In this document: positions 20,137 through 40,000 of the stretch, piece by piece
How the letters are laid out: every line of letters starts with the position of its first letter
Numbering within the stretch: position 1 is the first letter of the stretch
Origin: Terriglobia bacterium
Lineage (GTDB): Bacteria > Acidobacteriota > Terriglobia > 20CM-2-55-15
Assembly (NCBI GenBank): GCA_963555775.3
Contig: CAUVWY020000009.1
Coordinates: 940,598 to 980,597, forward strand
Length of the DNA stretch: 40,000 bases
Direction of reading: 5' to 3'
Program-made: the position numbers and the translations under genes
Notes under the pieces: model-generated
Seen by the model: only the letters and a program-made list of their open reading frames with translations
What the model was told of the DNA's origin: nothing
Database searches by the model: none

Positions 20137-20253
20137 TCGTCGGCTATGTGTTGGCGATCACGAGAAAGTGAAGTTTTTGGAACACGCGCCGGCCGATCAC
20201 TCAGTCGATTGCGTATTCCGGCGAAAGCCACCAGTGATTCCGAAGTGAAAGTG

Positions 20254-20334
20254 AACCCCGCCTACCGGCGGGGCGATCTGTTCGCCAAACGTCGCCAGAT
20301 GATGCAATCGTGGACAGACTACCCTCAGCAGTAA
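20254..20334 (+). pseudogene. C-terminal remnant of a P4-type tyrosine integrase
   Basis: NPAYRRGDLFAKRRQMMQSWTDY followed by a stop matches the conserved integrase tail (AY.R.D....RR.MM..W.DY). No catalytic-domain sequence is recognisable upstream in the same frame. Confidence 0.45.
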
Positions 20335-20383
20335 CACGTGGGGCGGGCAGCGTCGGCGTACAGGCACACAGCGAGTGCCTCGT

Positions 20384-22630
20384 TCAGGTCGGCACGACCT
20401 GCAAGCGTTCACGCAACGCTGCGACCAAACTGGCGCTGCCTTGGCCTCTAGCGTACAGAGTGCACGCACCGCTTGGCCTGTGAGACTCGATGAATGCCGT
20501 CGCACTGTGTTTTGCTGCCGCCGTTGCGATGACGAACACGTCGGATGTGGCGGACGCACCTCTTAGAGCCGGCGAGCCGCCCACGTGATCATGGAATATG
20601 TTGACCCGGACTCCAGGGCACAGTTCCCGCACGACTAGCGCGGCGCGGCGAAGCGCGGACTCTTGTAATGAGTACAGAGCCACTTTCTTTCCATCCAAGG
20701 TGTCCCACTCCGACGGGAGTTGAGGTCTATCCTGTACCGGTTCTGGCTGGGTAACAGCTTCGGCCACACCGAGTTCTTCAGCCAGGTGTTGCAGGAGAAC
20801 GATGTCTGCCCTGTCGACACGTCGGTACCAGCGTCGAAAGAGCCCCGCAATCGCAACGACGAACCCCTGTCTCTCAGAGGGCGCGGGACAGGCTGCGTTC
20901 ACAACGATCTCGACCGCCTCGAGTGCGATCGTGGCAACGGACGGTGTCTCGACGGCGTTGATCGCGGATGACAGTTGCCCAAGAAGTTCGCGGTAGTCAG
21001 CAATTGTAACGCCCAACTGGAGCCTCACATCGACGACCTTCAAGAGCACGCTGACCTGAGGCAGCGACACCTGGTCGTCGACCGCGATTACGAAGAAGAG
21101 GCTCTCGAATACCACCTTCAGCCTCGGATCTAGTCCACTGCGCAAGCAAAACGTTAGAAAATAGGGCAGTGCGTCCCTAAGCGCCTCCTGGCCCCAACTC
21201 GCTCGATCGCGGAGGAGGAGATCCGCCACCTTTTGAACCGCCAACGGATCTCTGGCGAACTTGTCGACACTCCACTCTCGAGAGGCTATCTCCGCGACTG
21301 ACACAGCGGATGACCACGATTCTGGCAGCGTCAGACGTGTTAGCCACATCGCCCATGTCGTCGGTAGTTCCACGACGTCAGAATCTGTCACGGCAGCAGC
21401 ACTGAGTTGTTTTAAAGAACCGACAATACGCCCGAGAACCGCGTTGTGCGCCAGCCGTGATCGCCCGTCCACTGACAGACCTTCGACGGATTCCAGTGCG
21501 ACCTGAGCGGCTGACAGCGTTTCCATATCTCGCGCGCAACGAATCAAGAGTGCAGTTCGCTCAAAAGATGGTGGGAGGACGGCAACAAGGCTATAGGCGC
21601 GATCAATGTCAGCCTCGCCAAAGGCCGCACGCGCCTCCGCGAGAGGGTCACCTTCGGGCAGACCGACCTGCGCCTCCTCGAGGGCGGCGAGCATAGTCAG
21701 ATATTCACGATGCGAAGAACCCGGTGGGTATCGCTCAAGGACCGCTTCCGCAGCGACTAGCCTTGCTGGTGCCGACGCAAGGGCAGCCAGCAGAAAACTG
21801 ACGTCCACTTCATAACCTGAGAGACCCGCGCGCGATCGATACAGATCGCGGAAGCGCGGGAGAATGTCCGAGCGGAAGTAGCCGATGGCGTCCGCAGCAT
21901 CACGTCCAACTTCGAATTCCTGGAGGCACGAGCGGTACACGGCGCCGATCAAGGCCTCAGTTACCCGCCGCGGACGTGGCATTGCGATCAAAGCATCAAG
22001 TTCCGGAAGGGCCAGGATCGCGTCCCCGTAGCCGCCGACCGCGAGACATCGTACCTCAAGGAATAGAAGATTTGCCGCGCCAAGGTGGCCTGACGAACGC
22101 AATTCATCGATCAATCCGCGCGCAGCGGTTTCGTCGCGCATAAGCAACGCGTACTCGAAATCACGAAGAACTCTGCCGACTGCGCGTAGTCGACGTGCGT
22201 GCCTTGCGGGACGTTCGCCACGTAGCCGGATCAGGAGACGGAGGCGCTCCCGAGCAATATCAAGGATGGCGTGTTCCGAAACGTCAAGTCGGAAGGCATT
22301 GCTTCCGCATCGGGCCAGTACTGATGCCTCGACGCTGTCATTTTGATCGAGACGCTCAAACTGGTTACTTGAATCGCAGTAGCTCGGCCCAAGAAACGCC
22401 CGCACCTCGTCGCGGGCGTTTCGCGCAGCACGCGGAGACGAACAGAGTATGTACCACTGCACTTGTCCACTGTCCCGCACGCGAGGGAGCACGAGAACCT
22501 CTGGATTACGCCGCAGGTCATCGAGGAACGGATCGAGCCTGTCCTGCACGTCGCGTGGAAGTGAACCTGCCTGAATCGCATCCCAGCGCAGACGATTGCC
22601 TGGGCCGAAGAACGTCTCTTCGAAGGTCAC
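20384..22630 (-). CDS. Unknown 748-aa protein, last gene of the helicase/PLD operon (C-terminal DUF2325-like region)
   Basis: 4-nt overlap with the PLD gene. The C-terminus KKVALYSLQE...VNIFHDHVGG...DVFVIATAAAKHSATAFI resembles the DUF2325-type pattern. The rest is helical and Arg/Leu/Ala-rich with no motif I can name. Confidence 0.65.
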   Translation of the reverse strand: MTFEETFFGPGNRLRWDAIQAGSLPRDVQDRLDPFLDDLRRNPEVLVLPRVRDSGQVQWYILCSSPRAARNARDEVRAFLGPSYCDSSNQFERLDQNDSVEASVLARCGSNAFRLDVSEHAILDIARERLRLLIRLRGERPARHARRLRAVGRVLRDFEYALLMRDETAARGLIDELRSSGHLGAANLLFLEVRCLAVGGYGDAILALPELDALIAMPRPRRVTEALIGAVYRSCLQEFEVGRDAADAIGYFRSDILPRFRDLYRSRAGLSGYEVDVSFLLAALASAPARLVAAEAVLERYPPGSSHREYLTMLAALEEAQVGLPEGDPLAEARAAFGEADIDRAYSLVAVLPPSFERTALLIRCARDMETLSAAQVALESVEGLSVDGRSRLAHNAVLGRIVGSLKQLSAAAVTDSDVVELPTTWAMWLTRLTLPESWSSAVSVAEIASREWSVDKFARDPLAVQKVADLLLRDRASWGQEALRDALPYFLTFCLRSGLDPRLKVVFESLFFVIAVDDQVSLPQVSVLLKVVDVRLQLGVTIADYRELLGQLSSAINAVETPSVATIALEAVEIVVNAACPAPSERQGFVVAIAGLFRRWYRRVDRADIVLLQHLAEELGVAEAVTQPEPVQDRPQLPSEWDTLDGKKVALYSLQESALRRAALVVRELCPGVRVNIFHDHVGGSPALRGASATSDVFVIATAAAKHSATAFIESHRPSGACTLYARGQGSASLVAALRERLQVVPT

Positions 22631-23145
22631 GCCACACCCCCATATTCCTTCCGAAAGGCGAGTCGCAGTTGCTCGACGCTACCGCGCTCATTCTGGAAGA
22701 CAAGCATTTCCGTGAGGCGCTCCAGTCCGTTGAATGTCAGGTTCATTGAACCGAGCAGCGAGTACCGGTCACCGACAATACCCTTGGCATGCAGTTCCGA
22801 ACGCTCATGGAAGATCACTGCTTCCGGTCTACCCACGGCCTGGAGTCCATCCAGGACCTGGCGATTACCCGCATCTGCTCGCGCCGCGATCACGACAGTC
22901 GTCCCTCGGTCGACAAGTTCTCGAAGCACGCGGCTTAGACGCACCTCCGCGCGAGGAAAGTCCGGGCAGAGAGACAGAAACGACCCGGTGCTGTTGTCGA
23001 GGACGGGGATGTCGCGCAGCCACGGCGACACGATCCAAAGGCAGCGGCTCGGCATCAAGAGTTCTGACGCGAAGATGAGTTGCAGCAATTCCTGAGCGGA
23101 CTTTCTTGCGTCAACCGCGGTTTGCAGGAACTGGCGCGTTGTCAC
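22627..23145 (-). CDS. Single-HKD phospholipase D-family nuclease (DpdK-like / Nuc-like)
   Basis: HAKGIVGDRYSLLGSMNLTFNG contains H-x-K-x4-D-x6-GSxN. The product is 172 aa and has 4-nt overlaps with both neighbouring genes. Confidence 0.8.
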   Translation of the reverse strand: MTTRQFLQTAVDARKSAQELLQLIFASELLMPSRCLWIVSPWLRDIPVLDNSTGSFLSLCPDFPRAEVRLSRVLRELVDRGTTVVIAARADAGNRQVLDGLQAVGRPEAVIFHERSELHAKGIVGDRYSLLGSMNLTFNGLERLTEMLVFQNERGSVEQLRLAFRKEYGGVA

Positions 23146-24181
23146 TGAAAGGCCTCTGGCAATTCAACTGCGGCCTTGAAGCGGCCGCCGTCACGGCGAA
23201 TCCCGGTCACGCGTGCGTGAACAAGAATGGCCTCTGAGTCAACCGGTTCTGCGCCGATTCGCAGCAATGCGTCCGCGAGTTGTCCGCCGTTGTCGGCAGC
23301 GGCGACAAGTTCGGCCGATCCATCTTCAAGTAGGACGCGCGCGAGTTCGTCGAACCAGTTGGCATTGGAAACAGCGATTTGCCGTACCGACCACGAGACT
23401 GCAGCTATTACGAGCAGTCGATCAGACTCTGGGAGTCGTTCAAATGGGTTCCATGCACGTAGCGATTCTGCTCGGATCTGTGCTCCACGAGGCCAGAACA
23501 TGCTGTATAGAACGCCGAAGCGCCACGCACGGCGTGCACTCTCGGAATCACCCGCCGGCGTCACGCCGAGCGCCCGCTCCAAAGTTGCATCCGAACTCTT
23601 GACTAGAGCAAAGACCCGAGCGTCAATTTCGACATTGAGTGCGACTTCCGCAGCCTGCCATTCGCGTGCTAGCGCCGCAGCAAAGCAGTCCATGTTTCCG
23701 CTCGTTCCAGATCCCAGCAAGCGTGTATTGACCGACACCATGAGCGTTGTGGTCGGCTGGATGTCACGGCGGGCGAGTTCACTCCGCAGGGCCGTTTGCG
23801 CACGGAGGCCCTCTCTGTGGGACGTTGCGACACGGACTGCACTGAACGCGTTCACCAAAGAGGAGTGTTCTGGTCTCGCCGAAGACACCATGTCCAGGAT
23901 GCGGGCGAGTTCGTCACCGATGGCCTCCAAATCAGAACCACTGAGCACGTCGTCTAATAGTCGGCAATATCTTCTCGGGTCCTCCACATACCGCGCAAAA
24001 AACTCCTCGACAAATCCGCCGCCACCGATCGTCGTCTCCGTGATCCACAACTCGTCCACGTGTTCACCCGCCTCTGCGTCTTGAGCATTCTCGCGATTGA
24101 CGTACGCGTTCAGATCCAATGCAAGAGCCCCTGGGTCCATTCGAGGACACAGATTGTGAGCTCCTTCGACGAGCGCAGATC

Positions 24182-24311
24182 CTAGCAGCCTGTCGGACTT
24201 TCGGCGTAAGTCCTTTGTTTTCAACAACGGCCCTTTTTAGCCCGAAACGGTAAACACAGTCATATGAATGACTTAGGTTTTTGATTCGGTGTTAGTCCGA
24301 CAGGCTGCTAG
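24182..24311. mobile_element. MITE-like element, copy 2, inserted inside the large helicase gene
   Basis: Same 130-bp sequence as 7205-7334, with CTAG at both ends. It supplies the premature stop (LAACRTNTESKT*) of ORF 24273-25685 and the false start MLKTKDLRRKSDRL of ORF 23142-24227. Confidence 0.85.
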
Positions 24312-25699: not shown

Positions 25700-27643
25700 T
25701 CTGAAGTTCCCCCGCCAGTATGGACGTATCTAGCTGAGAAATAAGAACAAATCAGGATATGGAAATGTCGGCTACTGGGAACGTCTTGATCAGTTCGGCA
25801 GCGCGCCGTTGCAGAGGGGTGGGTTCGGTGAGGCGTTCGAGAGGCGGGCCGTCGGGATCGGTTTGGAGTCGGCAGGCGCACCGGCATTGGGTCGCCAACT
25901 CGGCGAGCAGGGTGGACATGCTGTGCAAGGGCAAACCGTCATCGGTCCGGCGGCGGTTCTTCTTGGCCTTCGCCGTGTCGGACGCCTGGGCGGGCAAGAC
26001 GGGATCGCGCGTGGCGCGTTGCAGGTCGAGTTCTTCGTCGTGGAACAGCAACGGCGCGAGCGCCTGGCGCAGGTGCCATTCGACGTAGTAGGCGAGCATG
26101 CACAGGAAGATATGGGCGCGCACACGCGACTCGGTGCGATGGTATATGGGCCGTATCCGCAAGTCCACGGTCTTCAGGGACCGAAAGGCGCGTTCGACGC
26201 GGGCGAGGTTCTTGTAGCCGCGGACCACTGCGGCGGCGTCCAGTCGCGTGGCCGGTTCGCTGGTGCGGACGACGTAGTACCCGTCCAGGGCCGCTTCGCG
26301 TTCAATGGCGGCGGTCTTGCGCTGGTAGGTGAAGCGGTGGTCTTCAATGACGGTTTCGAAGTGCTTGGCCATCTTGAAGCGGTTCTGCGCGCGCCCGACT
26401 TTCTCGGCAATGGCGGTCGCGGTCAGCGGCGTCCGGGTCCGCCGCGCCACCTGGCGCTGGATCTTGCCGAACGCCTCTTCGGTGGCCGTGAGCAGCGCGT
26501 CGCGTTTGCGCCGGCGGCGCTCGGCCAGTACCGGGTTGTGGCAGACCACGAGCCGCTCGTCCGGGTACGCCGCGACGGTGATTTCGGCCAGGTTCCGCGC
26601 ATCGAACAACGACGTTTGCACCGCGCCCTGCTCGAACAACCGGCGAATGTCGGTATGCCGCAACGCCGAAATCCAGCCTAACCCCGGGTGCTGTTTGAGA
26701 TGGTCGATCTGCGTCTGCGTCAGCATGCCGCGATCGCCCACCAGCACCACCCGTTCGAGACCGAAGCGATCGCGCAGTTTCGCCACCTGGTCCGGAACCG
26801 TGTTCGGATCGGCCGTGTTGCCCTCATAGGCCTGTATGGCCACCGGCCGCCCCGCCGCATCGGTCATCAACCCATAGACCACGATGGGCCGTCCCCGCTT
26901 GCCGTCGCGGCTGTAACCGAACTGGGCCAGGGCACAGGCGCGCCCTTCGTAATAGCTGCTGCTGACGTCATAGAGCACGTGCCCGCTGTCGGTCAGATGC
27001 CGCGCGGCCAGCCGCCGTTCAATCCGCTCCTGACGCTCCAGCACCCAGTCCATGGCGTCGTAGAGATCGTCCTCATCGGCGTTGTCGAGCGCCAATTCCT
27101 GAGCCAGCGTGGTGGTGTGCCACAGCCGCGTGGCGGCGAGCTTGGACGTGGGCGCCAGGAGGCGCTGGACCAGCATCGCCAGCACCAGGTCGCGCGGCCG
27201 GGACCGTTTGCGGTCGAGCACGGCCGGCAGGTCGAGACGGCGCAGCAGGTGCAGGATCAGTGCGACATGGCCGTGCGGCAGCGTACGGTCGATGGTGAAG
27301 GCCTCCTCGGGGTGGACCAGGGGTTGGTCCTTGAGCAGTTGGCGGAGGCGGGCGACTTTCGGCGCGGGCCAATGGGAGAGATTGGCGATGGTGCGTTTGT
27401 GGACGCGATGGCCTTCGCGCCAGCCTTCCCGCAGCAGGACGGCGGGTGGCGAGTTGCGGTTGGGAACAGTTTCAACGTACATGGGAACATAATGTACGTG
27501 AAATAGCTGATTAATGCAACACCACAATGAGCAAAAAGATTCTCATACATGGGAACATCTGGCGCTTTTCTGCCGAGGCATAATGCTCCCTAATTCAAGA
27601 CGTTAGGGTGCGTTTTCGACCAAAATGCCGGGGGAACTTCAGC
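25700..27643 (-). mobile_element. IS1634-family (IS4 superfamily) insertion sequence, about 1.94 kb
   Basis: Imperfect 18-bp inverted repeats are TCTGAAGTTCCCCCGCCA (25700-25717) and TGCCGGGGGAACTTCAGC (27626-27643). It is flanked by a TTAA (or TTAATCT) direct repeat at 25696 and 27644. It contains one transposase gene. Confidence 0.85.
25752..27482 (-). CDS. IS1634 family transposase
   Basis: MYVETVPNRNSPPAVLLREGWREGHRVHKRTIANLSHWP... is the characteristic N-terminus of IS1634-type transposases. I prefer the ATG at 27482 over the listed start at 27527. Confidence 0.9.
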   Translation of the reverse strand: MYVETVPNRNSPPAVLLREGWREGHRVHKRTIANLSHWPAPKVARLRQLLKDQPLVHPEEAFTIDRTLPHGHVALILHLLRRLDLPAVLDRKRSRPRDLVLAMLVQRLLAPTSKLAATRLWHTTTLAQELALDNADEDDLYDAMDWVLERQERIERRLAARHLTDSGHVLYDVSSSYYEGRACALAQFGYSRDGKRGRPIVVYGLMTDAAGRPVAIQAYEGNTADPNTVPDQVAKLRDRFGLERVVLVGDRGMLTQTQIDHLKQHPGLGWISALRHTDIRRLFEQGAVQTSLFDARNLAEITVAAYPDERLVVCHNPVLAERRRRKRDALLTATEEAFGKIQRQVARRTRTPLTATAIAEKVGRAQNRFKMAKHFETVIEDHRFTYQRKTAAIEREAALDGYYVVRTSEPATRLDAAAVVRGYKNLARVERAFRSLKTVDLRIRPIYHRTESRVRAHIFLCMLAYYVEWHLRQALAPLLFHDEELDLQRATRDPVLPAQASDTAKAKKNRRRTDDGLPLHSMSTLLAELATQCRCACRLQTDPDGPPLERLTEPTPLQRRAAELIKTFPVADISIS

Positions 27644-29819: not shown

Positions 29820-30521
29820 CTACGGAACAACCACTTGCACACGAAGATATTTGAACAGATCTCGGTCAGAAAGCCATTGACGTACGCTGGGAGTCAGTCT
29901 TTCAATCGGTGCGCCTCCGCCGCGACGCCCCGCCTTGAAGAACTCCAACACCTCCTTCGGAAACTCGTCGGGCTTCAAATCATCAGCGAGTCTCCGCAAC
30001 GCCTCGCGGTGGTCGAGAAACTGCTCAAGAGATTCCGCCGAGAAGCAAGGGTCATTTCCATTGAGCAGAGCATCCCGTTGTTGACGTATCCTGCTCACTC
30101 GATCGGCATATCCAGGGATGACTTCCACTTGCTTCAGAAACACCTCTTCAACAGTGGGCAAGTCCTGCCGCACCGATTTGAGCGCCTTCTCCGCGATGCC
30201 CAGAAGATCCTTACCGAACTTGTCGACCGACCGTTTCAGTCGACCGTAGTCTCTTCCGCTTTCTACTGGTTTCACCGCGAGCTTCGCCTGACATTCGGCC
30301 AGCACCCTCATCACAGCATCAGGTGATGGGGGCTTGGCAACAGCCACGTCCTTCGTCCTAAACACGACGACTCGCTCTATCGCATCCTCCACGACATCAC
30401 GAATGGATTTCAGTTCGCCGGCAAGCTCCCGAAACACCTCGGCGTCCATATGTGCACGTCGAAGGTCGTTCCGTTGCTGAATCTGCGAACCAATATTGGC
30501 GCAGCGGTCGAGCACTGTCAT
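29820..30521 (-). CDS. Unknown 233-aa helical protein within the helicase operon
   Basis: 4-nt overlap with the upstream ATPase gene. Its stop lies 2 nt before the helicase ATG. No recognisable motif. Confidence 0.6.
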   Translation of the reverse strand: MTVLDRCANIGSQIQQRNDLRRAHMDAEVFRELAGELKSIRDVVEDAIERVVVFRTKDVAVAKPPSPDAVMRVLAECQAKLAVKPVESGRDYGRLKRSVDKFGKDLLGIAEKALKSVRQDLPTVEEVFLKQVEVIPGYADRVSRIRQQRDALLNGNDPCFSAESLEQFLDHREALRRLADDLKPDEFPKEVLEFFKAGRRGGGAPIERLTPSVRQWLSDRDLFKYLRVQVVVP

Positions 30522-33500
30522 AGCTGGCCTGCCCTTTCGAGCTGCCGGCGGATCTCCTGAAGTTCGACCGAAAGCGAGGAGACTGCTTCCGCGAAGGGGT
30601 CAATACCGTACTTCTGCGATTCGCCCGCCAGTCGTGCCTCTACGGAACAAAGGATTTCGTCGAGTTTCATTCGCAGTTGGTCGCACAGACAGACGACGGG
30701 TTCGTAGCCGCGTCCCAATATCGTGAGAACATGTCCGCGGGGTGCCCCATCAGCTATCTTGCCAGCGTCATCAAACGCCGCCATTACCTTCATCCTGCGG
30801 AACTCCTCAAGAAACTGGAGCACCTGCTTTGTATCCATACCCGTCGTGAGACCCGCAGACATCGCCGTTTCGATCGTCTCCTTCGCCACCCGAATCAGCG
30901 CGTCTTTGTCTGTTCCCTCGCCAAGCCAGGCGCGGGTTTCGTTCCGCCAGTCAACCAGTCGCCGTTGCGCTTTCACGACTCCAGAACTGAGTTTCCTCAG
31001 GTCCGAGTACGTCGTTCGAAAAGCGGCAAATTCTGGGACACCGGACGGCGTTGGCAGCGACTCACTAAACTTCCAAGAGGCCACGGTCCTTTCGATTGAC
31101 GACTTTAGACGCATGACATCGATCGCATGCACCGCGTCCCCTTGGCCTTGCCGCGCGCCGATCAGACTTAGGAGATGGCCCTGCCACGACAGTTGGCCGC
31201 GTAACTCTCTTCCGCCTTGCTCCCGGCATCGCCGCAGTTCTTCAGTGAATTCAAGCCACGCCGCAAATTCTGCATCCGTGTTGGCCGCTGCATTCACCGG
31301 CGCAGATTCCGGTGCATCAGCGAACATCGCATTGACAAGTGACGCGTGATCGCGATCCTTTGCAGCGGCATCAATGCCCAGCGCTCGGGCACCGGTCAAG
31401 AGCCCTTCGACAAATGCAGGAATTGGATCCCAGTTCGCCTTAAAGTACCTTCCCCGCACGAAGATGCGCGCACGTTCTGCCATTCTGCCGACGAATGCCC
31501 CGTACTTCGCCAAATCATTTTCGGCATCCGCGTAGTCCCATTTACCTTTATGAACCGCGTGAAATCGAATCAGCGCCATGAGGGCCGAGTGAACGCTCGC
31601 GCTGGCGGCTTGGTCCACACGATCAGCGTCCGAGCATACTGCGATCATTCCGTCGTCGGCGGTTCGTCCCTCGTTTCCAGCAGCGTGAGGAATGTAGATC
31701 CAGTTGAACCACAAAGCCAATGGCGCGTCCCTACGAGGTCGATAGAGATCCCAATCCCACTCAACGAAACCCTTTAGCGCCTCTGCAATCCACTTGCGAA
31801 GTTGATTGGCATCCGCTTGCGGAATAAGCACGCCGCTCCGCCACTTCTCCAGTATTTGCTCCCAGTTCGCCTCAAGAGGACCCTTGGATGTACGCTTCTC
31901 AAGTTTCTCAGTTTTCTCAGTTTTCTCGGGTTTCTCGGGACGCTTCGGTGGTGTGCTGTCTTTGGAAAATATGCGGCGATCCAGACCGAACGCAGAGAAT
32001 ACACGCGGTTCTATTTGATCTATTTCGGACAGCGTATCCGGGAAGTCACCCCAATACCCAAGAAACCGCAGATAGCGCTCGAAGGCCTGCACTGGCACAC
32101 GCCGTTTCACTTCTTCCGCGATCCCAGCCGGCAAGGGTCTGCCGGGAGCGCCGAATGTCTCGGATGGAAAATTACCCGCCTCAAAGAGATCGCGATGATT
32201 CAGCACGGTAGTAATAACGTTCTGAATTACAAATCGGGGATTGTAGACGAGGCGACCGTTCTGGCTGCAGCCCGCGTGACTCATCTGGTCAATCGCCGCA
32301 GCATTGAAAGGAAATAGTTCATAACCATCAGACGACACGCCAAACGCGTCGAGCGTCGCACGGGCTTCTGGTTCGACATCTGCTTTGAAGACAGGAATTC
32401 CCTCGTGTTCGACTGCGAATTCCGGTGCGGCAACTCTGACTGCCTCTTCCAGGGCATTCTGACCCAGGCGCGCCGCGTTCAGGTACGCTCCAACGAGTTT
32501 TTTGATTCTCGAAAGAATCTCTTCCTCAGTTCCTGGTTCATCCGGTATACGAAACTCAACATTCGCACGCGTGAGTACAGTTGCCGTGTCCATATAGCCG
32601 GTCGTGTACGCCAGCGCAGTTCGCATAGTGCACAACTCCTGACGGCCATCTCGAAACGCCCCTTGGATGATTACTTGCAGCAATTGCTTCTGGAGCCCTG
32701 ACAAGACCGCGAAATCTTCTACGAGAAGCACGAGTTCGCGATGCTCCTTAAACAACTCCCGCCGCACCGCGTCGAACAATTCCGAAACAGTGGGATCGAG
32801 ACGCAGCAAGCGTTGTTTGGCGCCATCGAGGGCGCCGTTCAGGATATGGGCCGCCGTGGCGCGTCGGTCGCCGCGGTCGAACTGAGCCAATGCCTTGGCT
32901 TCCACTCGGCCAAGCGCGCCCCGGTCGATCGCTTCTGGATCGAATTTCAGATCGTCCGCGATAAAGGAATGTTGCCGATCATCATCGCCGCTGGCATCAC
33001 GAACCTCCGTGAGTTGTTCGACAAGCCTCTTGACTACACCATCACGCCCATCTGGAGTCTGAACGAAATGTTTATCCCTGAGTAATTGGTTGCGTAACAG
33101 CGCCTGGAGCATGTCGGCACGACAGAACCCCTCACGTTCGCGAGCACTCTTGTCGGCTGGATTCTTCAGGAGCGCGGCGGCAGCCTCCGTATACATCTCA
33201 TCGATTGTGTGGGCGAGCATCTCGCACAGCAGGCCCGCCGCTTCGCGCGGTTCTAGTTCCTCTTGTGCCCGAACGAGTTCCGTACGGAATCGGTCGTACG
33301 CAGAACCGCGCAAGTCCTTGAGAATAATACCTAGGACACCTTTCAGGCTCATCCCCTTGGGAATCCGTAGGATGACGCGCTGATCGTTCCCCGGTTGTAG
33401 CCGGATCTGTGCGTCCAACCATCGAATCACGTGCGACTTTCCGATGCCGGAACTGCCAACAATGGGAACAATGCGCCGACCGTCTGGCTCATCCGCGAGG

Positions 33501-33694
33501 AACCACTCGAGCAATTCGCGCTCGCCACAGGTCCCCACTTTCTCGCGGTCTCCTCCAATCACGCGCCGCTCGAATTGCATCGGTTGATGAACCGCCAGCA
33601 ACACAGCCTTGTCAGCACCTTCTGCGTCCGTCTTTATGCACACCATCACGTCGGACTCACGCGGCCAGTACCGGAGAAGGTCTCGTGTCGACAT
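30518..33694 (-). CDS. Large P-loop NTPase (1058 aa), function unknown
   Basis: Walker A motif IVPIVGSSGIGKSHVIRW lies near the N-terminus. There is a long helical C-terminal region and an internal PEKPEKTEKTEKLEK linker. The ATG directly follows the TAA of the upstream gene. Confidence 0.75.
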   Translation of the reverse strand: MSTRDLLRYWPRESDVMVCIKTDAEGADKAVLLAVHQPMQFERRVIGGDREKVGTCGERELLEWFLADEPDGRRIVPIVGSSGIGKSHVIRWLDAQIRLQPGNDQRVILRIPKGMSLKGVLGIILKDLRGSAYDRFRTELVRAQEELEPREAAGLLCEMLAHTIDEMYTEAAAALLKNPADKSAREREGFCRADMLQALLRNQLLRDKHFVQTPDGRDGVVKRLVEQLTEVRDASGDDDRQHSFIADDLKFDPEAIDRGALGRVEAKALAQFDRGDRRATAAHILNGALDGAKQRLLRLDPTVSELFDAVRRELFKEHRELVLLVEDFAVLSGLQKQLLQVIIQGAFRDGRQELCTMRTALAYTTGYMDTATVLTRANVEFRIPDEPGTEEEILSRIKKLVGAYLNAARLGQNALEEAVRVAAPEFAVEHEGIPVFKADVEPEARATLDAFGVSSDGYELFPFNAAAIDQMSHAGCSQNGRLVYNPRFVIQNVITTVLNHRDLFEAGNFPSETFGAPGRPLPAGIAEEVKRRVPVQAFERYLRFLGYWGDFPDTLSEIDQIEPRVFSAFGLDRRIFSKDSTPPKRPEKPEKTEKTEKLEKRTSKGPLEANWEQILEKWRSGVLIPQADANQLRKWIAEALKGFVEWDWDLYRPRRDAPLALWFNWIYIPHAAGNEGRTADDGMIAVCSDADRVDQAASASVHSALMALIRFHAVHKGKWDYADAENDLAKYGAFVGRMAERARIFVRGRYFKANWDPIPAFVEGLLTGARALGIDAAAKDRDHASLVNAMFADAPESAPVNAAANTDAEFAAWLEFTEELRRCREQGGRELRGQLSWQGHLLSLIGARQGQGDAVHAIDVMRLKSSIERTVASWKFSESLPTPSGVPEFAAFRTTYSDLRKLSSGVVKAQRRLVDWRNETRAWLGEGTDKDALIRVAKETIETAMSAGLTTGMDTKQVLQFLEEFRRMKVMAAFDDAGKIADGAPRGHVLTILGRGYEPVVCLCDQLRMKLDEILCSVEARLAGESQKYGIDPFAEAVSSLSVELQEIRRQLERAGQL
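31895..31948. repeat. Short 9-bp-period tandem repeat inside the ATPase gene
   Basis: CTTCTCAAG TTTCTCAGT TTTCTCAGT TTTCTCGGG TTTCTCGGG ... on the plus strand encodes the (P/T/L)EK x5-6 linker. Confidence 0.7.
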
Positions 33695-33951
33695 TTACCT
33701 CATCCCCGTACGCACGAAGTGGCTGACTGGACGCAATGCGCGGCCACCTCGACCGAGCAACATGCGCTGCGGTGCATCAGACCGTGCTTCGAGCCGAAGT
33801 TCATCGTTGGCTTCGAGGGTCAAGAGCGCCGCCGAGAGACTGAGCGACACTTCAGCCGCGCGTTGGGCGCGCCACGGGCCCTCTGTGCCAATGTAGATGA
33901 GACACCTTCCCTAACGTTAATTAGTGAGCAGGGCGGGAAGGAAGATAACCT

Positions 33952-34440
33952 GTGTTGGTGATTAAACCAGAAGAGGAGAAAGAATCGCGGGCAACGGAAG
34001 GAGCCCGTAGGGCGACTGGAGTTGGGCGCGATTCGGCCGATGGGAATGGTGCCGGTCCGGATCCGGAGGTCGCCGATAAGGCGACGCGTCGACGATTCAG
34101 CGCGGAGTATAAGCGCCGGATCGTACGAGATGCCGACCGGTGTACGAAGCCCGGTGAGGTGGGCGCGTTGTTACGCCGTGAAGGGGTGTACTCATCGAGC
34201 CTGAGCACGTGGCGTCGGCAACTCGATGCCGGGGAGTTGGCCGGCGTCGGATCGGTCAAACGTGGACCGAAGGCGCAGCCGATAGACCCGCGGGATAAGC
34301 GGATTGCGGAGTTGGAACGGGAGACTCGGCGTCTGGAGGCGAGACTCGGGCAAGCCGAGACGATAATCGCCATTCAAAAAAAAGTTGCGACGCTATTAGG
34401 AATTCCGCTGAATACGATCCAGGACAAGGAGAACGGTTGA
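33952..34440 (+). CDS. IS3 family transposase OrfA (HTH)
   Basis: GTG start follows GGAAGGAAG. The sequence includes RRRFSAEYKRRIVRDA and a leucine-zipper-like C-terminus (ELERETRRLEARLGQAETIIAIQKK). Confidence 0.85.
   Translation: MLVIKPEEEKESRATEGARRATGVGRDSADGNGAGPDPEVADKATRRRFSAEYKRRIVRDADRCTKPGEVGALLRREGVYSSSLSTWRRQLDAGELAGVGSVKRGPKAQPIDPRDKRIAELERETRRLEARLGQAETIIAIQKKVATLLGIPLNTIQDKENG
34376..34384 (+). promoter_or_regulatory. Probable programmed -1 ribosomal frameshift site (A8G) of the IS3 element
   Basis: The run AAAAAAAAG lies near the end of orfA. orfB is in the -1 frame and is open upstream of its listed ATG. Confidence 0.6.
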
Positions 34441-35441
34441 TGGAAGCGGCCCAGACCCACTCTGCCGAGTTGGGCGCCGCACCCGCATGCCGGGCCTTTG
34501 GAGTTCCCCGTGCATCGTTCTATCGTCACCGGCAACGGCGAGCCGAACCCGCCCCAGACCCGATCCGTCGGCGATCGCATCGAGCGTTGAGTGAGGTGGA
34601 GCGCCAAGAGGTCCTCGACCTGCTGCATGGCGATCGCTTCGTGGACCAGGCGCCGGCTCAGGTCGCCGCCGCCCTGCTGGACGAGGACCGCTATCTGTGT
34701 TCCCCACGAACGATGTATCGGATCCTGGAAGCGAATCAGGAAGTTCGCGAACGAAGGAACCAGCGACGCCATCCCGCCTATACAAAGCCGGAGCTGTTGG
34801 CTACGGCTCCGAATCAAGTTTGGAGTTGGGACATCACGAAGTTGAAGGGACCCCAAAAGTGGACCTACTTCTACCTGTACGTGATCCTGGACATCTTCAG
34901 CCGCCAAGTCGTGGGCTGGATGGTCGCCGATTGCGAATCGGCGAATCTGGCCAAAAAGTTGATCCAGAAAGCCTGCGACAAGCAACAGATTGATCGTGAT
35001 CAACTCATACTCCACTCCGATCGTGGATCGTCGATGAAGTCCAAGGCGGTGGCGCTGCTGTTGGCCGATCTGGGAGTGACGAAGTCTCACTCCCGACCGT
35101 ATGTATCGGACGACAATCCATTCTCGGAAGCGCAGTTCAAGACGCTCAAGTACCGGCCAGGCTTCCCGGACCGTTTCGGTTGTAGCCAGGACGCCAAGGC
35201 GTTCTGCAGGGACTTCTTCCACTGGTACAACAATGTCCACTACCATTCGGGACTGAACTGGTTGACACCGGCTATGGTTCACCACGCCCGTACCGACATC
35301 GTCATCCAAAAACGGCAGCATGCCATGGATTGTGCGCGGCAACGCCACCCAGAACGCTTCGTCAACGTACCCAGAACGATCCCAGGGCCGCCCGACAAGG
35401 TGTGGATCAATCCACCCGTAGAATCGCAGGCGGTAGCTTAA
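34437..35441 (+). CDS. IS3 family transposase OrfB (DDE integrase core)
   Basis: WSWDITKLKG...YLYVILDIFSRQVVGW...LHSDRGSSMKS...YVSDDNPFSEAQFKTLKY is the rve-type DDE pattern. Confidence 0.9.
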   Translation: MMEAAQTHSAELGAAPACRAFGVPRASFYRHRQRRAEPAPDPIRRRSHRALSEVERQEVLDLLHGDRFVDQAPAQVAAALLDEDRYLCSPRTMYRILEANQEVRERRNQRRHPAYTKPELLATAPNQVWSWDITKLKGPQKWTYFYLYVILDIFSRQVVGWMVADCESANLAKKLIQKACDKQQIDRDQLILHSDRGSSMKSKAVALLLADLGVTKSHSRPYVSDDNPFSEAQFKTLKYRPGFPDRFGCSQDAKAFCRDFFHWYNNVHYHSGLNWLTPAMVHHARTDIVIQKRQHAMDCARQRHPERFVNVPRTIPGPPDKVWINPPVESQAVA

Positions 35442-36193
35442 TTGTTGAACCCACGTGTCTCACACTTGTTGACATTCACCGGGGCGCGCCATCTTGTTCT
35501 CGATCGAGACGCGATAGCGACCGCCATCAACGATTGGGAGCGAATCCGCTAGCCCCGAAAAGAAATCGGCCTGAGGCAACTCCTTAGCTCCACGAAACAC
35601 CGCGTCGAGTGTGAAGCGCACTGCAACTGCTGGGTGTGGCACAAAGCTTATCTTCGTCGTCTTCCATCCGATTCCTAGAAATGTGGCCCACTCACTGAAA
35701 CCCGCCCAACGTGTGTCATTTCTAAAAGGCCGAGGCTCGACGCCTTGCGCGTCCTGAAGCGACTCAACACCGCCCTTGTAACTGGCCGGAAAGCCGTACG
35801 GGTCTTGCGCCAGTGCCCATGCGATTGCGCGTGTGCAATCGGACGCCTTTGCATCTTCGCGGACTTCATCGTTGTCCTGCATGAATGCGGGGTTGTTCTC
35901 ATTCTTCAGAACCAGTCGAAGAACTGCGGCACGCACACTTGGCAAGTCATCGGCGGCTATGCCAGCGATTGTTGATGTCAGATGAATGACGCCCCCGACA
36001 TCGTCGAAGAACCCCAACTGCTTCCACCGATTCAAGGTCATTCTGGCCAGTTCAGGCTTGCCTTCCGGCACGACTGACGAAGGCGCTACCAGTCTAATAA
36101 GCTCCGAATCCGGTCGCGGACCGTACGCGAGCACGGCCCGCCTCAACGCGAGCAGCACCGAAAGCAGACCGTCTGAAGGACGGTTGAGAATGC

Positions 36194-36817
36194 TCATGAC
36201 TGCAACCTAGCAAGGAGATCCTCTATCGACAGATGCTTTACTACATCGAGCAGGAGCCTTTGCGGTTGCGCCGGGTCCGGAGTGCTCCGGGGAACGACAA
36301 TAATGTGACGCGGGCGGTGGACAATCATTACTCTTTTCAGCGCCCCTAGGGCCAGACACCGCTCCCCCAGCAGTGTGAGTCTCGGCACGGGCGCCGCAGG
36401 GGCCATGCGACTATCCAAGTCCGCTGTCGCGCGAATCACAAATCGAAGTGGCGCCCGAGACGTCAGTTGCGACCATTCACGACTGGAAAGACTCCCATCG
36501 GGGAGTGCTAGTTCCGTGATGCCATCATGACTTAGGTTTTTTACCGGTGTAGTCCGACAGGCTGCTAGTTCCGTGATGCCATCAGCTACCGAGTAACGAA
36601 GAAGGCTGAGCAGACGCTCCCGCCATTGTCTCATCTCCCTGAAAGCATCACCGAACACCTCTTCGTATGACACCCAAGCCCGGCCTACTTCGTCTGAGCA
36701 GGGAGCCAGAGCACGCTCGAAGGTCGCTGATAGTACAGCAGCGGTATTGGTGATCGTGGTCACCTCGGGCTCTGGAGACCGCAAACCCACCGCATTTTTT
36801 GTCTTGTAGTCGGGCAA
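36194..36817 (-). CDS. Unknown 207-aa ORF (possibly the frameshifted C-terminal part of the RecQ-like gene) containing a 57-bp MITE-derived in-frame insertion
   Basis: It has a TTG start, a 58-nt out-of-frame overlap with the RecQ-like ORF, and a 4-nt overlap with the downstream gene. The peptide DGITEL occurs twice, 19 aa apart, because of the duplication and insertion at 36508-36584. Confidence 0.5.
   Translation of the reverse strand: MPDYKTKNAVGLRSPEPEVTTITNTAAVLSATFERALAPCSDEVGRAWVSYEEVFGDAFREMRQWRERLLSLLRYSVADGITELAACRTTPVKNLSHDGITELALPDGSLSSREWSQLTSRAPLRFVIRATADLDSRMAPAAPVPRLTLLGERCLALGALKRVMIVHRPRHIIVVPRSTPDPAQPQRLLLDVVKHLSIEDLLARLQS
36528..36568. mobile_element. Partial, diverged MITE end (37 bp + CTAG)
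   Basis: TGACTTAGGTTTTTTACCGGTGTAGTCCGACAGGCTG+CTAG corresponds to the right end of the 130-bp element (TGACTTAGGTTTTTGATTCGGTGTTAGTCCGACAGGCTG+CTAG). It is bracketed by a 20-bp direct repeat, CTAGTTCCGTGATGCCATCA, at 36508-36527 and 36565-36584. Confidence 0.7.
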
Positions 36818-38841
36818 CTTCCCGCGAATATCGGCGGGATTACGATCGGGTTTTCCAGGGTGTAGGCCTGACGAAAGATCTCATTCAGGGGGCGCCGTAC
36901 ATCGCGGAGTTCCTTGACTGATTTGAGTCCCTCCTCGTCGGCAGAACGAAGCGTCGCCCTCGCATGAGCCACAACGTCATCCCAATGGGCCTTGTCCGAG
37001 TGGCGCGTATCACGAATCCGTACTGCCACCTCTCGCGCGAACCGCTCCAATATTGGTCGCCGCCGCTTCTCGAACCTCTCGTCGCTTTCATCGTCCAACC
37101 GATCAATCACCGGCGGCGGATGTGCCGCAAAACTGATCAGGCCGGCCTGTGCCATAAGAACGAGGGTCCGCAGATTCCACGACGCGTTTAGCTCTCCCAC
37201 GTCAGCGATGTCGGCCGGCCTATCATCCAGTGAAAGGATGTACGTGTCGTCACTGGTCCGATGGTGCCGGACCCACATTGCATCCCATCGTTCAAATGCC
37301 CGGTCGATGCTAATCAGCCGTTCCTTGCCCAATGCCACGGCGGTGGCAACGTCTGAACGCGTAATCACGATGAGAGCAACTGCGGCCCGTCCATCGCGAC
37401 CGGCCCGTCCAACCTCCTGATAGTAGCGATCGATAGTCTCCGGTAAACAAGCGTGTACGACAGATCTGACTTCTTGCTGATCCATACCAAGGCCGAACGC
37501 CGATGTAGCGACGACAATGTCGACTGCGGAACCTCGCCAGTCCCGTAACACGTCGTCACCGCCCAAAGCCGCGAGATCGCCTCCACGCACAAGCCGGGTA
37601 CGACGCAATCCGCTGTTCTGCAGGCACGCATACCAATGTGCAGCGCGCTCACGAAGTGTTGTGTAAAGGATGAGCGGTCGCGGGAGGTGCCACATAGCTT
37701 CAAGGATGCGGGTCGAACGTTCGTCTTCTTCATCCACCGCGTGAATCAGGAAGCCCGGTTCGGGACGGAGTTCCGGTTCTGATACAACTTGGCAGCCCCC
37801 ATTGCCGAACAATTGCCGCAACGTTTCGCAGCATTCTGAGGTGAGCGTCGCAGTCAGAAGAAGTGTCCGGAATCTTGCCGCCGGTGGGCAAACGGCCAGC
37901 AAGGCATCTTTGAGCCCTGCAATGCTCTGAAACTCTGGTCGGAACTGCTGGCCCCATTGCGTCACGATGTGAGCCTCATCGATCGCAAAGACACGCAGAC
38001 GCCCTTCACGTGCGGTCTCGAAAAGAGGTCCACGCAGGGCTCCCATTACCGCCTCTGCCGAAGCGAACACAATTGGAAGGCTACCGTCACGTATCCCCGC
38101 CCTAATGGCGTTCTTCGAGTCGGCGTCGAGGCCGCCGTGATAAGCACAGGTCACATCGGTTTGAGGTCGGCCCGTATCCAACTGTCCGGCGAGTTCACGA
38201 AAGCGTTCCTCCTGATCTTTCGCGAGTGCAGTCGTTGGGACGACAACGAGCGTCAGTCCGCCCTCGGATCCCCAGACGAGAGCGGGCAATTGGAAGGCAA
38301 GCGTCTTTCCTCCACCTGTTGGCAAGCTGACAATCGCTGTGGATCCAGCCGGCATGAGAAACGCTGCCTGCACAGCGGCCCGCTGGCCGCTCGAGACGTA
38401 CTCCGAATGGCCCGTGAATTCTGTTAGGAGTGGATCGTTCGGGACAGGGCGCGCTTGCCTGCGCAGAACCTCACCGATCGCTGCGTCCACTACGTCTGGC
38501 GCGCCAGGATCGAGCCATGAGGGCTCCCATCGTTGCGCGCGTACGACGTAATCTGCTCCCGCAACTCGCGCGTTGCAACTGAACTGTTTCCAGAGTTCTG
38601 CGGTCGGCCAATCCTCGCCGCGGGGAACGCGCAATTCTGCCTCTTCTCCGAACTCAAGTTGGCATCGTAGCATTCCCTGACGCAGAAGCCCGGCGATGTC
38701 AGCCCTCCCAGTCTTTCCTGATGCCGCAGGAATCCCTTGAAGGGCATCGCGGACTCGTGCCAGAAACCGGTCGCCGATCGGTATCGGAAACGGTTCGGCC
38801 GATAGAACAAGTCGCTGCAACTCGTGGATGTGCGCGATCAC
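36760..38841 (-). CDS. RecQ-like DEAD/DEAH-box helicase (DpdF-like)
   Basis: Helicase motifs: LPTGGGKTLAFQLPAL, FAIDEAHIVTQWGQQFRPEF, LTATL, and QEVGRAGRDG. GTGA start overlaps the upstream gene stop. Confidence 0.85.
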   Translation of the reverse strand: MIAHIHELQRLVLSAEPFPIPIGDRFLARVRDALQGIPAASGKTGRADIAGLLRQGMLRCQLEFGEEAELRVPRGEDWPTAELWKQFSCNARVAGADYVVRAQRWEPSWLDPGAPDVVDAAIGEVLRRQARPVPNDPLLTEFTGHSEYVSSGQRAAVQAAFLMPAGSTAIVSLPTGGGKTLAFQLPALVWGSEGGLTLVVVPTTALAKDQEERFRELAGQLDTGRPQTDVTCAYHGGLDADSKNAIRAGIRDGSLPIVFASAEAVMGALRGPLFETAREGRLRVFAIDEAHIVTQWGQQFRPEFQSIAGLKDALLAVCPPAARFRTLLLTATLTSECCETLRQLFGNGGCQVVSEPELRPEPGFLIHAVDEEDERSTRILEAMWHLPRPLILYTTLRERAAHWYACLQNSGLRRTRLVRGGDLAALGGDDVLRDWRGSAVDIVVATSAFGLGMDQQEVRSVVHACLPETIDRYYQEVGRAGRDGRAAVALIVITRSDVATAVALGKERLISIDRAFERWDAMWVRHHRTSDDTYILSLDDRPADIADVGELNASWNLRTLVLMAQAGLISFAAHPPPVIDRLDDESDERFEKRRRPILERFAREVAVRIRDTRHSDKAHWDDVVAHARATLRSADEEGLKSVKELRDVRRPLNEIFRQAYTLENPIVIPPIFAGSCPTTRQKMRWVCGLQSPR

Positions 38842-40000
38842 GCTTCCTCCAGGTCATGGGATGCAAGTACCACGGCCCCTGCGGAATCCACTCGCAGGAA
38901 CGGGGTCTCAATCCCGACAGCAAGGGCGTCGCTCAACTGCAGTTCAAATCGAGCCATCTTCTCCTCAGATTCACGGACTGAGCCAGCGAGTTGCGCAATT
39001 CGACTCTTCAGAGCTTCGTTTACGCTTGCAGCAAACTCCCGCGTCTGCAATGCACAGCGGTCACAGCGTTCTCTGAATCGCGGGTCGTCCCGAACCTCCC
39101 GCTCGGCGACCTGCCGTGCGCGGTAGCATAGTTCGCCCCAATCCCCGATGGACACGAGCGCGTCAACGCGCTCCCATCGATCTATTCTGAGATTCACATC
39201 TCTACCGCCATCAGCCCTTGGGCTCTTCTGATATGGCCATCCAAGCACGGTCAAGACTTGCTCATTCTTCACCGGCACAAGATCTCCATTGAGCCACACG
39301 GTTCGATACTCGACGGAAAACGCCTCATCTGCCCGTCGCCGCAGTGAGGCGAGAGAAATGCTGTCATCAAGATCGGTTCCGACTTTGGCGAGATCAGCCT
39401 CCACAACGAAATCGAATCTGAAGAAGAGGCGCGGGAATCGAGTCGATCTCGGTACATAGCGCCACATCGCGAAAGCGGTCCCACGGTCATCACTGCGAAC
39501 TAATGCTTCGAAACCATCAACGAACGGATGGCCTACTCGAAGCAAGCTTGTTTGCTTAGTCTCTGCAATCGCTCTCTCAAAAGTGACAGGGAGCATTGGC
39601 AGTTCTGCCCAATCGCGAGTCTCTGGATCCCAATCGATGCAGGCGTCAAATCGCCGTACTGCCTCTAACAGTGGGACATGCGTTGGCCGGCGGAGGTCAT
39701 GGGTGTATCTCAGGATTCCTGGGCCGAGTCGACGGCATCCAAACTGAAGCAACTCAGTGACCCACGAGTTCAGAGATCTTTCACCCTGTGTCTCAGCCAA
39801 TTCATCGGCTTCCACAAGAGTGGCGAAGAATGCCTCGTCGGCCGCAGCATCTCCTTCAACAGAATCAAGCGACTCCTGCGCCCGGATTCGGCGCAATTCG
39901 GCGTCGAGTCCCGTTTCTGGATCTTGCATACGCGCGACTTCCTCATCAATAGCCGTGCGGCCATCTTCCAGAAGCCGTGAACGAATCCGTGCTGTCCCTT
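38838..40000 (-). CDS. C-terminal part of a larger protein (5' end outside the window), first visible gene of the minus-strand operon
   Basis: The frame is open from the window edge through the listed ATG at 39929 (...RIRSRLLEDGRTAIDEEVARMQDPETG...). No helicase or nuclease motif is visible in the roughly 387 codons present. Confidence 0.7.
   Translation of the reverse strand, partial: GTARIRSRLLEDGRTAIDEEVARMQDPETGLDAELRRIRAQESLDSVEGDAAADEAFFATLVEADELAETQGERSLNSWVTELLQFGCRRLGPGILRYTHDLRRPTHVPLLEAVRRFDACIDWDPETRDWAELPMLPVTFERAIAETKQTSLLRVGHPFVDGFEALVRSDDRGTAFAMWRYVPRSTRFPRLFFRFDFVVEADLAKVGTDLDDSISLASLRRRADEAFSVEYRTVWLNGDLVPVKNEQVLTVLGWPYQKSPRADGGRDVNLRIDRWERVDALVSIGDWGELCYRARQVAEREVRDDPRFRERCDRCALQTREFAASVNEALKSRIAQLAGSVRESEEKMARFELQLSDALAVGIETPFLRVDSAGAVVLASHDLEEA

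Follow-up and report, generated by a model that had tools for sequence, protein, structure and literature searches.

The minus strand between positions 20384 and 40000 of the 40,000-nt stretch of contig CAUVWY020000009.1 (Terriglobia bacterium) analyzed in this study, referred to here as the window, harbors a block of eight genes in the order dpdE-dpdF-dpdG-dpdH-dpdI-dpdJ-dpdK-dpdD, in which dpdD is the last gene and dpdE is cut off by the end of the window. Genes were named using NCBIfam equivalog models with their curated cut-offs, in conjunction with the PADLOC Dpd models, while relatives of the block were recovered via protein search and contig look-up. Among these relatives, an intact metagenome contig designated L001, with about 91% nucleotide identity to the window, encodes a DpdE of 1088 aa, a DpdF of 863 aa, a DpdG of 296 aa, a DpdH of 1057 aa, a DpdI of 233 aa, a DpdJ of 1530 aa, a DpdK of 172 aa, and a DpdD of 751 aa. 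The genes of the block, the open reading frames (ORFs) from which they were read, and the insertion sequence (IS) elements and smaller insertions that lie among them are as follows:

38838..40000, minus strand: 3′ part of dpdE, last 386 codons, in an ORF that is open to the window edge; SNF2/BrxHII-like helicase
36194..38841, minus strand: dpdF pseudogene; RecQ-like DEAH helicase with PTGGGKT and DEAH in its translation
36508..36583, minus strand: in-frame 57-nt insertion in dpdF, placed by alignment to L001, with a terminal inverted repeat (TIR) match at 36551-36564
35482..36197, minus strand: 5′ part of dpdG, codons 1 to about 238 (ORF 35460-36197); DpdG profile 1-235 of 290, 181 bits; tblastn match to L001 DpdG residues 1-237
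33879..35481, plus strand: IS3-family element in dpdG, 1603 bp; orfA 33952-34440 and orfB 34437-35441; NCBIfam transpos_IS3, 200 bits
33695..33878, minus strand: 3′ part of dpdG, last ~60 codons and stop, abutting the dpdH start; tblastn match to L001 DpdG residues 237-296
30518..33694, minus strand: dpdH, intact, 1058 aa; BrxC-like P-loop ATPase; Walker A motif GSSGIGKS, Walker B motif LLVEDF
29820..30521, minus strand: dpdI, intact, 233 aa; weak NCBIfam DpdI match, position and size
27643..29817, minus strand: dpdJ part 1, codons 1 to about 725 (ORF 27595-29817); DpdJ profile 1-696 of 1482, 980 bits; PADLOC 975 bits
25701..27642, minus strand: IS1634-family element in dpdJ, 1942 bp; transposase 25752-27527; NCBIfam transpos_IS1634, 342 bits
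24308..25700, minus strand: dpdJ part 2 (ORF 24273-25685); DpdJ profile 702-1157; alignments to L001 and to two further relatives, L008 and L009
24186..24307, unstranded: 122-bp miniature inverted-repeat transposable element (MITE) in dpdJ; 14-nt TIRs CAGCCTGTCGGACT, target-site duplication (TSD) CTAG, two in-frame stops
23142..24185, minus strand: dpdJ part 3, the C-terminus (ORF 23142-24227); DpdJ profile 1145-1482
22627..23145, minus strand: dpdK, intact, 172 aa; PLD/HKD nuclease with the motif HAKGIVGD...GSMN
20384..22630, minus strand: dpdD, intact, 748 aa, last gene of the operon; NF041061 profile 3-704 of 704, 516 bits (cut-off 300); PADLOC 498 bits

Curated cut-offs were exceeded by the products of dpdD, dpdF, dpdG, dpdH, dpdJ, and dpdK, as well as by DpdA and DpdB of the adjoining module detailed below, and the names given by PADLOC agree throughout. 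As encoded, dpdF produces a match of 734 bits to positions 19-670 of the 813-position DpdF profile (cut-off 550), and the 207-aa ORF that follows it matches positions 701-813 (E 0.017). DpdH, the homologs of which carry the name “protein DpdH,” reaches 641 bits against an NCBIfam cut-off of 450 and 403 bits with the PADLOC model, and its Walker A and Walker B residues occupy columns that are invariant in an alignment of 59 sequences. The first part of DpdJ represents a YprA/DrmA-like superfamily 2 helicase with AGTGSGKT, DEVH, and QRKGRAGR motifs and a Cys4 insert in RecA1, while DpdK is supported by 168 bits (NCBIfam cut-off 100), 164 bits in PADLOC, and the Pfam PLDc_2 domain. The visible portion of DpdE matches positions 692-1047 of the 1048-position NCBIfam profile NF041062 with 241 bits (E 1.8e-71; the cut-off of 500 applies to the whole protein) and the PADLOC model with 212 bits, and shares 91% amino acid identity with residues 703-1088 of the 1088-aa L001 protein. 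A Pfam scan returned only the generic DEAD, Helicase_C, AAA_22, and PLDc_2 domains, and nothing for DpdG, DpdD, DpdI, or the C-terminus of DpdJ.

Structures were predicted with AlphaFold 2 for DpdH and DpdD. The best solved-structure matches of the DpdH model (predicted local distance difference test score, pLDDT, of 85) are those of the BREX protein BrxC (9zdx/9zll; probability 0.96-0.99). The DpdD model (pLDDT 87, predicted TM score 0.79) is composed of a small N-terminal alpha/beta domain, a long TPR-like helical solenoid, and a C-terminal Rossmann-like alpha/beta domain, and it retrieved only generic TPR matches from the PDB, which fits a scaffold or adaptor role for the modeled protein. 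No solved structure was found among the sequence relatives of either protein. The first-pass annotation, which was made from the sequence alone, had recognized in this block an enzymatic domain set of the DpdE-K type, as the NCBIfam and PADLOC models now bear out; the proteins of 207, about 311, 233, 748, and 1058 aa in which (for the last of these, over most of its length) it had discerned no motif belong, in each case, to a named Dpd family (the DpdF C-terminus, DpdG, DpdI, DpdD, and DpdH, respectively).

The genes of the block are tightly coupled, as is evident from the seven junctions between them, which were read directly from the sequence and the ORF coordinates:

38838-38841, minus strand: dpdE/dpdF, GTGA overlap
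36194-36197, minus strand: dpdF/dpdG, ATGA overlap
33697-33692, minus strand: dpdG/dpdH, TAA followed directly by ATG, a stop-start abutment
30518-30521, minus strand: dpdH/dpdI, ATGA overlap
29822-29815, minus strand: dpdI/dpdJ, TAGGAATG; stop 29820-29822 and ATG 29817, separated by a 2-nt spacer
23142-23145, minus strand: dpdJ/dpdK, GTGA overlap
22627-22630, minus strand: dpdK/dpdD, GTGA overlap

Each of these junctions had been listed in the first-pass annotation, and each was reproduced at its position; a further candidate ATG for dpdJ is present at 29805. Because L001 exhibits the same junction types as the window, the junctions are considered to be conserved operon features and not the outcome of chance. 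The count of “nine or more” coupled genes, on the other hand, is reduced to eight, the surplus ORFs being fragments made by lesions. The C-terminal portion of dpdF corresponds to the 207-aa ORF (36194-36817), dpdJ is distributed over the three ORFs of 740, 470, and 361 aa, and a 245-aa ORF together with the ~60-aa tail at 33695-33878 constitutes dpdG, while the 591-aa minus-strand ORF (25752-27527) and two plus-strand ORFs at 33952-35441 encode transposases and fall outside the gene set of the operon. The description of the block as one co-translated unit holds insofar as a coupled minus-strand operon is concerned; at present, that operon is interrupted in dpdF, dpdG, and dpdJ by a frameshift, two IS elements, and a MITE.

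The gene order is shared well beyond the immediate relatives of the window. The order E-F-G-H-I-J-K-D, with near-identical gene sizes and coupled junctions, was observed in L001, in L003 (Sorangium), in L004, and in L005 (Corallococcus), and its G-to-D and I-to-D parts were seen in L008 and L009, respectively, while dpdB and dpdA adjoin the restriction operon in L003, L004, L008, and L009. Loci of the same order encode DpdH proteins with 53% (Sorangium), 44% (a metagenome contig), and 39% (Corallococcus) identity to that of the window. It had been put forward that homologs of these genes might routinely be encountered without helicase or nuclease partners; instead, these three DpdH homologs retain the complete E-F-G-H-I-J-K-D arrangement, and dpdB and dpdA adjoin dpdD in two of the three loci. 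Based on the profile models and this synteny, the question of whether the block is a true Dpd module or an independent neighbor is answered in favor of a true Dpd restriction module, and we consider it very probable that it represents the restriction operon of a canonical Dpd island, arranged tail-to-tail with its own modification/synthesis operon and recently wrecked in the window genome. Dpd systems mark DNA with 7-deazaguanine bases and restrict DNA in which the mark is missing. The system is thus one that is already known, each of its genes being named by standard annotation models, and the present copy is a recently pseudogenised one.

The opposing view, namely, that an independent helicase/nuclease defense system of a DISARM-, Druantia-, BREX-, or Hachiman-like nature merely adjoins a 7-deazaguanine module, draws on weak secondary matches of DpdJ, DpdK, and DpdF to the DrmA, DrmC, DruE, and BrxHI/BrxHII models and on the resemblance of the DpdH model to BrxC. 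The Dpd models, however, score at least 10x above the others (DpdJ, 975 bits versus 75 for DruE and 46 for DrmA; DpdK, 164 bits versus 29 for DrmC), DpdD, DpdG, and DpdH, families exclusive to Dpd, are each represented, and the eight-gene order was apparent in every DpdH locus inspected, with dpdA/dpdB visibly adjacent in most. Although a further relative, L002, in which a very different restriction cassette accompanies the same modification module, demonstrates that the two halves are physically separable, that alternative cassette is itself composed of DpdD, DpdK, and DpdJ according to the equivalog models. An independent system is, consequently, regarded as extremely improbable.

Uninterrupted reading frames are lacking for dpdF, dpdG, and dpdJ, and the lesions responsible were mapped base by base against L001 and against L008 and L009, two metagenome contigs with 95 to 97% nucleotide identity to the window, the TSD of each insertion being verified. 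The wording of the first-pass annotation, which referred to a “repaired operon,” had hinted at such interruptions. In dpdF, the loss of one nucleotide from an A-run at 36798/36799 (alignment to L001) splits the gene into a 693-aa ORF (36760-38841) and the 207-aa ORF mentioned above. The 57-nt insertion in the same gene consists of the 38-nt left end of a MITE (36527-36564) and one additional copy of the 19-nt target repeat GATGGCATCACGGAACTAG, such that the repeats flank the MITE end, and it represents a MITE deletion derivative or excision footprint. The IS3-family element in dpdG is bordered by a 3-bp TSD (CCC) at 33876-33878 and 35482-35484, its boundaries having been established by alignment to L001 and L008 and by means of a second copy that occupies another site in L007, an assembly derived from a different sample and sharing 100% and 99.3% identity with the window in its flanking segments. 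An earlier candidate for the ends of this element, a pair of TGAGACAC repeats without target duplication, was ruled out by that L007 copy, which displays the true ends and a 3-bp duplication.

The largest gene, dpdJ, bears two insertions. The IS1634-family element possesses 31-nt TIRs and a 6-bp TSD (ATTAAG) at 25695-25700 and 27643-27648, and the MITE is absent at the corresponding site in L001, L008, and L009. A frameshift between the 470-aa and 361-aa ORFs was considered and rejected, as the in-frame MITE with its two stops is located at that position. Full copies of the MITE are present at 7209-7330 and 24186-24307 (122/122 identical), in addition to the 38-nt remnant in dpdF; a search with its TIR returned 5 matches compared to 0.29 expected, and no parent transposase with ends matching the MITE was found in the window. 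As single-stranded DNA, the element is predicted to adopt a strong fold with a long hairpin (z = -7.35).

Removal of these lesions in silico produced uninterrupted ORFs of 882 aa for dpdF, 298 aa for dpdG, and 1533 aa for dpdJ. With one base restored, DpdF matches positions 19-813 of its 813-position profile (754 bits; cut-off 550); with the IS3 element removed, DpdG matches positions 1-289 of 290 (229 bits; cut-off 80); and with its three parts joined, DpdJ matches positions 1-1482 of 1482 (1632 bits; cut-off 800). As the repaired ORFs match their profiles end to end, the decay is judged to be recent. The intact islands resemble the window in gene order and junctions, and L009, in which the dpdI-to-dpdD portion and the whole modification module (with two dpdB genes and dpdC) are intact, also resembles it in its flanking genes, including the same antitoxin gene; L001, L008, and L009 are, in contrast, devoid of the IS3, IS1634, IS1380, and MITE insertions, the dpdF frameshift, and the dpdB nonsense codon of the window. 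In L007, the MITE occupies the same dpdJ site as in the window and the IS1634 region is present, although this stretch aligns only partly and poorly, while an extra IS3 copy (L007 positions 3212-4817; 99.75% identical) has entered dpdJ at the equivalent of window positions 28700-28702 with a TSD of its own (GTC). These shared lesions, coupled with an IS3 copy bearing its own TSD, indicate that the insertions are real and that IS3 is active. With dpdF, dpdG, and dpdJ broken, restriction in the window genome is, as judged from these reading frames, almost certainly off.

The modification and synthesis module, located on the plus strand between 11364 and 20136 in the order dpdC-dpdB-dpdA-dpdB-queC-queD-queE, converges on dpdD and is thus arranged tail-to-tail with the restriction operon:

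11364-12332, plus strand: dpdC; DUF328/DUF6884 family; full-length PADLOC DpdC match of 283 bits (E 6e-85), with NCBIfam indicating no more than a weak relation to YaaA
12329-12725 and 14580-15308, plus strand: dpdB copy 1, broken by an IS1380-family element between the two parts and by a GAA-to-TAA change at 14847-14849
12726-14579: IS1380-family element in dpdB copy 1; TSD CTAG
15305-16585, plus strand: dpdA; TGT-family DNA transglycosylase; NCBIfam NF041059, 533 bits (cut-off 200)
16582-17670, plus strand: dpdB copy 2, intact; DndB/ParB-like (DGQHR) ATPase; 368 bits (cut-off 300); PADLOC 383 bits
17667-18380, plus strand: queC (NCBIfam QueC)
18394-19482, plus strand: queD (NCBIfam QueD)
19495-20136, plus strand: queE (NCBIfam QueE)

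The two dpdB paralogs share 31 to 36% identity and are both intact in L002 and L009; copy 1 is the nearer of the two to the canonical model, its intact ortholog scoring 461 bits compared to 368 bits for copy 2. At 362 aa, QueD is about three times the usual length and contains three matched QueD stretches, a size that is retained in L001, L002, L008, and L009 (344 to 364 aa), and by its sequence it looks like a tandem or multidomain QueD. Upstream of the module, positions 8795-10594 harbor an AbiEi/AbiEii-type pair, named from the Pfam matches of the L002 orthologs, of which AbiEii, owing to a frame-shifting 2-nt insertion near 10231, is left as two ORFs of 220 and 104 aa and represents another decayed defense gene. 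An HI1420-type antitoxin gene (10546-10923, minus strand) is accompanied by a small upstream partner ORF (10947-11258, minus strand).

An alternative reading is that the operon is, in fact, intact and functional, its interruptions being artefacts of sequencing or assembly. In keeping with this, the window seems to stem from a contig assembled from a metagenome, and the dpdF frameshift corresponds to one base missing from an A-run, an error typical of long reads. A perfect TSD and complete terminal repeats are, however, found for each of the three mobile elements inserted in the operon, as well as for IS1380 in dpdB, and chimeric joins do not yield such features; in L007, which derives from a different sample, the MITE recurs at the same dpdJ site, IS1634 is represented by a stretch that aligns in part, and IS3 has an additional copy flanked by a TSD of its own; and neither the nonsense codon of dpdB copy 1 nor the 2-nt insertion in AbiEii is a homopolymer error. 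An artefactual origin of the interruptions as a whole is, accordingly, considered highly improbable, the sole exception being the 1-nt deletion in dpdF, for which a base-calling error is plausible.

A wrecked restriction operon alongside a largely preserved modification module may also reflect a transition to a modification-only (orphan) epigenetic module, in which the restriction function was the first to go and selection maintains DpdA, DpdB copy 2, DpdC, and QueCDE, for example, for protection from other Dpd-bearing neighbors or for gene regulation. To our knowledge, a restriction-modification system can decay without lethal consequences only if restriction disappears ahead of modification, which counts in favor of this possibility. 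In the window, dpdA, dpdB copy 2, dpdC, queC, queD, and queE are intact and retain 95 to 98% protein identity to L002, and islands without a restriction operon are known (PMC12235509). Against it, dpdB copy 1, the nearest to the canonical DpdB model, has been destroyed by IS1380 and a stop codon, and the neighboring AbiEii gene is frameshifted too, a picture that looks more like general erosion of a defense island by active IS elements. A selected modification-only state is, for these reasons, viewed as possible but unlikely.

A different perspective on the restriction operon is offered by L002, a 5.54-Mb contig labeled circular, in which the chromosomal flank and the modification module are 95 to 98% identical to those of the window. 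Compared with window positions 20153-29400, this near-isogenic genome harbors at 14842-21275 of L002 a deeply divergent cassette with a DpdD of 24 to 38%, a DpdK of 38%, and a DpdJ of 26 to 48% amino acid identity, the homology between the two contigs breaking 16 nt past the queE stop; L008, which stems from the same sample as L002, carries the window-type cassette. One species-level population would thus maintain, at one locus and with one modification module, two divergent cassettes, from which we tentatively propose, at somewhat less than even confidence, that Dpd restriction operons are exchangeable plug-ins reading the same mark, and that active IS3, IS1634, and CTAG-targeting MITE elements are taking apart the cassette of the window lineage after, or alongside, such exchange. 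In L008, an IS21-family element, comprising a Mu-transposase-like gene and IstB (positions 12556-14867), is located between dpdD and queE of an island that is otherwise intact and of the window type; the convergent intergenic region, which is the site of the cassette breakpoint, therefore also takes insertions.

A Dpd system composed of dpdA to dpdK has reportedly been described for Salmonella enterica serovar Montevideo by Thiaville et al. in 2016 and Yuan et al. in 2019. The window resembles that system in its families DpdA-K, of which DpdE is visible in part and DpdI is a candidate with a weak profile match, in the separation of modification/synthesis and restriction into distinct operons, and in the location of queC, queD, and queE inside the island. 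It differs in that dpdF, dpdG, and dpdJ are pseudogenised, in that two divergent dpdB genes are present, one of which is broken, and in that its host is an uncultured bacterium; additional copies of dpdB are reported to be common (PMC12235509). In the Salmonella system, QueC, QueD, and QueE supply preQ0, which DpdA, together with the DpdB ATPase, inserts into DNA in exchange for guanine, DpdC hydrolyses the preQ0 base to the amido form (dADG), and genetic evidence has shown DpdD-K to be responsible for the restriction of unmodified incoming DNA (PMC10164549, PMC5699537, PMC12235509).

By analogy, DpdJ, as a YprA/DrmA-like helicase, and DpdK, as a small PLD nuclease, may form a DISARM-like core that performs DNA translocation and cutting, to which the SNF2/BrxHII-like DpdE and the RecQ-like DpdF would contribute as additional DNA motors, while DpdH, together with DpdI, could function as a BrxC-like ATPase in assembly or sensing, and DpdG and the TPR-like DpdD may serve as adaptors or scaffolds. 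A recent preprint similarly equates DpdE with BrxHII and DpdH plus DpdI with BrxC, and places DpdJ on a YprA-like branch with DrmAB (bioRxiv 10.1101/2025.09.15.676423). The likeness to DISARM lies in the position of DpdJ within the YprA-like helicase branch of DrmAB and in DpdK being a small PLD nuclease like DrmC (bioRxiv 10.1101/2025.09.15.676423). The two systems differ, however, in their mark, which is a 7-deazaguanine base exchange in Dpd and methylation in DISARM, in the Dpd helicase being a single, unsplit 1533-aa protein, and in DpdD, DpdG, DpdH, and DpdI having no DISARM counterparts; among the proteins scanned, no match to a DISARM methyltransferase model (DrmMI/DrmMII) was found, and the DrmA and DrmC matches are weak (17 to 46 bits versus 164 to 975 bits for Dpd). 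The likeness to BREX consists of the weak BrxC matches of the DpdH model, and none of the 10 proteins scanned matched the PglX, PglZ, or BrxC models (PADLOC; hmmscan E < 0.001).

A number of observations weigh against the interpretation of the block as a canonical Dpd restriction operon that has recently been disabled, or against particular parts of it. Only part of dpdE is visible within the window, and the structural match of DpdH to BrxC is weak (E about 0.01, TM 0.15-0.31). The NCBIfam match of DpdI, at 40 bits (E 4e-10), lies below the cut-off of 150 and covers the C-terminal half only, so that its assignment is a weak one that leans mainly on position and size; the PADLOC model matches it with E 3.5e-6, and a 232- to 261-aa ORF is located between dpdH and dpdJ in L001 and L003 to L005, and directly behind dpdH in L006, in which dpdJ is missing. 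The dpdF deletion falls in a run of six A's in what is apparently a long-read metagenome assembly, and could be a base-calling error. Finally, the individual roles of DpdD-K are unknown even in the model system (PMC10164549), and the division of labor outlined above is one that we infer from homology.

The G+C content changes in steps along the window (positions 1-40000), from 0.61-0.64 in the left chromosomal flank, which encodes a LigM-type O-demethylase and an aldehyde dehydrogenase, to 0.50-0.53 over the greater part of the modification module (15-20 kb) and 0.56-0.61 for most of the restriction operon, with the IS1380 and IS1634 elements standing out at 0.65-0.66; such steps are in keeping with an island of mosaic make-up that was acquired by horizontal transfer. 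Searches for a tRNA gene, an Rfam family, a sigma-70 promoter, or an intrinsic terminator that would mark the ends of the island or operon returned none. A scan of genome contigs with DpdH as a single protein returned no match, the nearest relatives being metagenome contigs, and the nearest named homologs, from Sorangium, are only about 53% identical. In L006 (GCA_963169825.1, contig CAUJFP010000017.1), a truncated Dpd operon consisting of dpdF-G-H-I only, without dpdE and dpdJ, adjoins an integrase and a transposase fragment near the contig end.

As standard annotation models already name every gene, the locus carries little weight as a discovery, and its analysis serves to resolve whether the block is Dpd or an unrelated neighbor. 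It also provides a base-resolved example of the natural loss of a large, presumably costly defense operon, the pattern of decay being one of several independent mobile-element hits on the largest genes, with restriction lost and part of the modification side already going. The near-isogenic intact, decayed, and alternative-cassette islands may, furthermore, be used to ask which of the DpdD-K proteins read the 7-deazaguanine mark.

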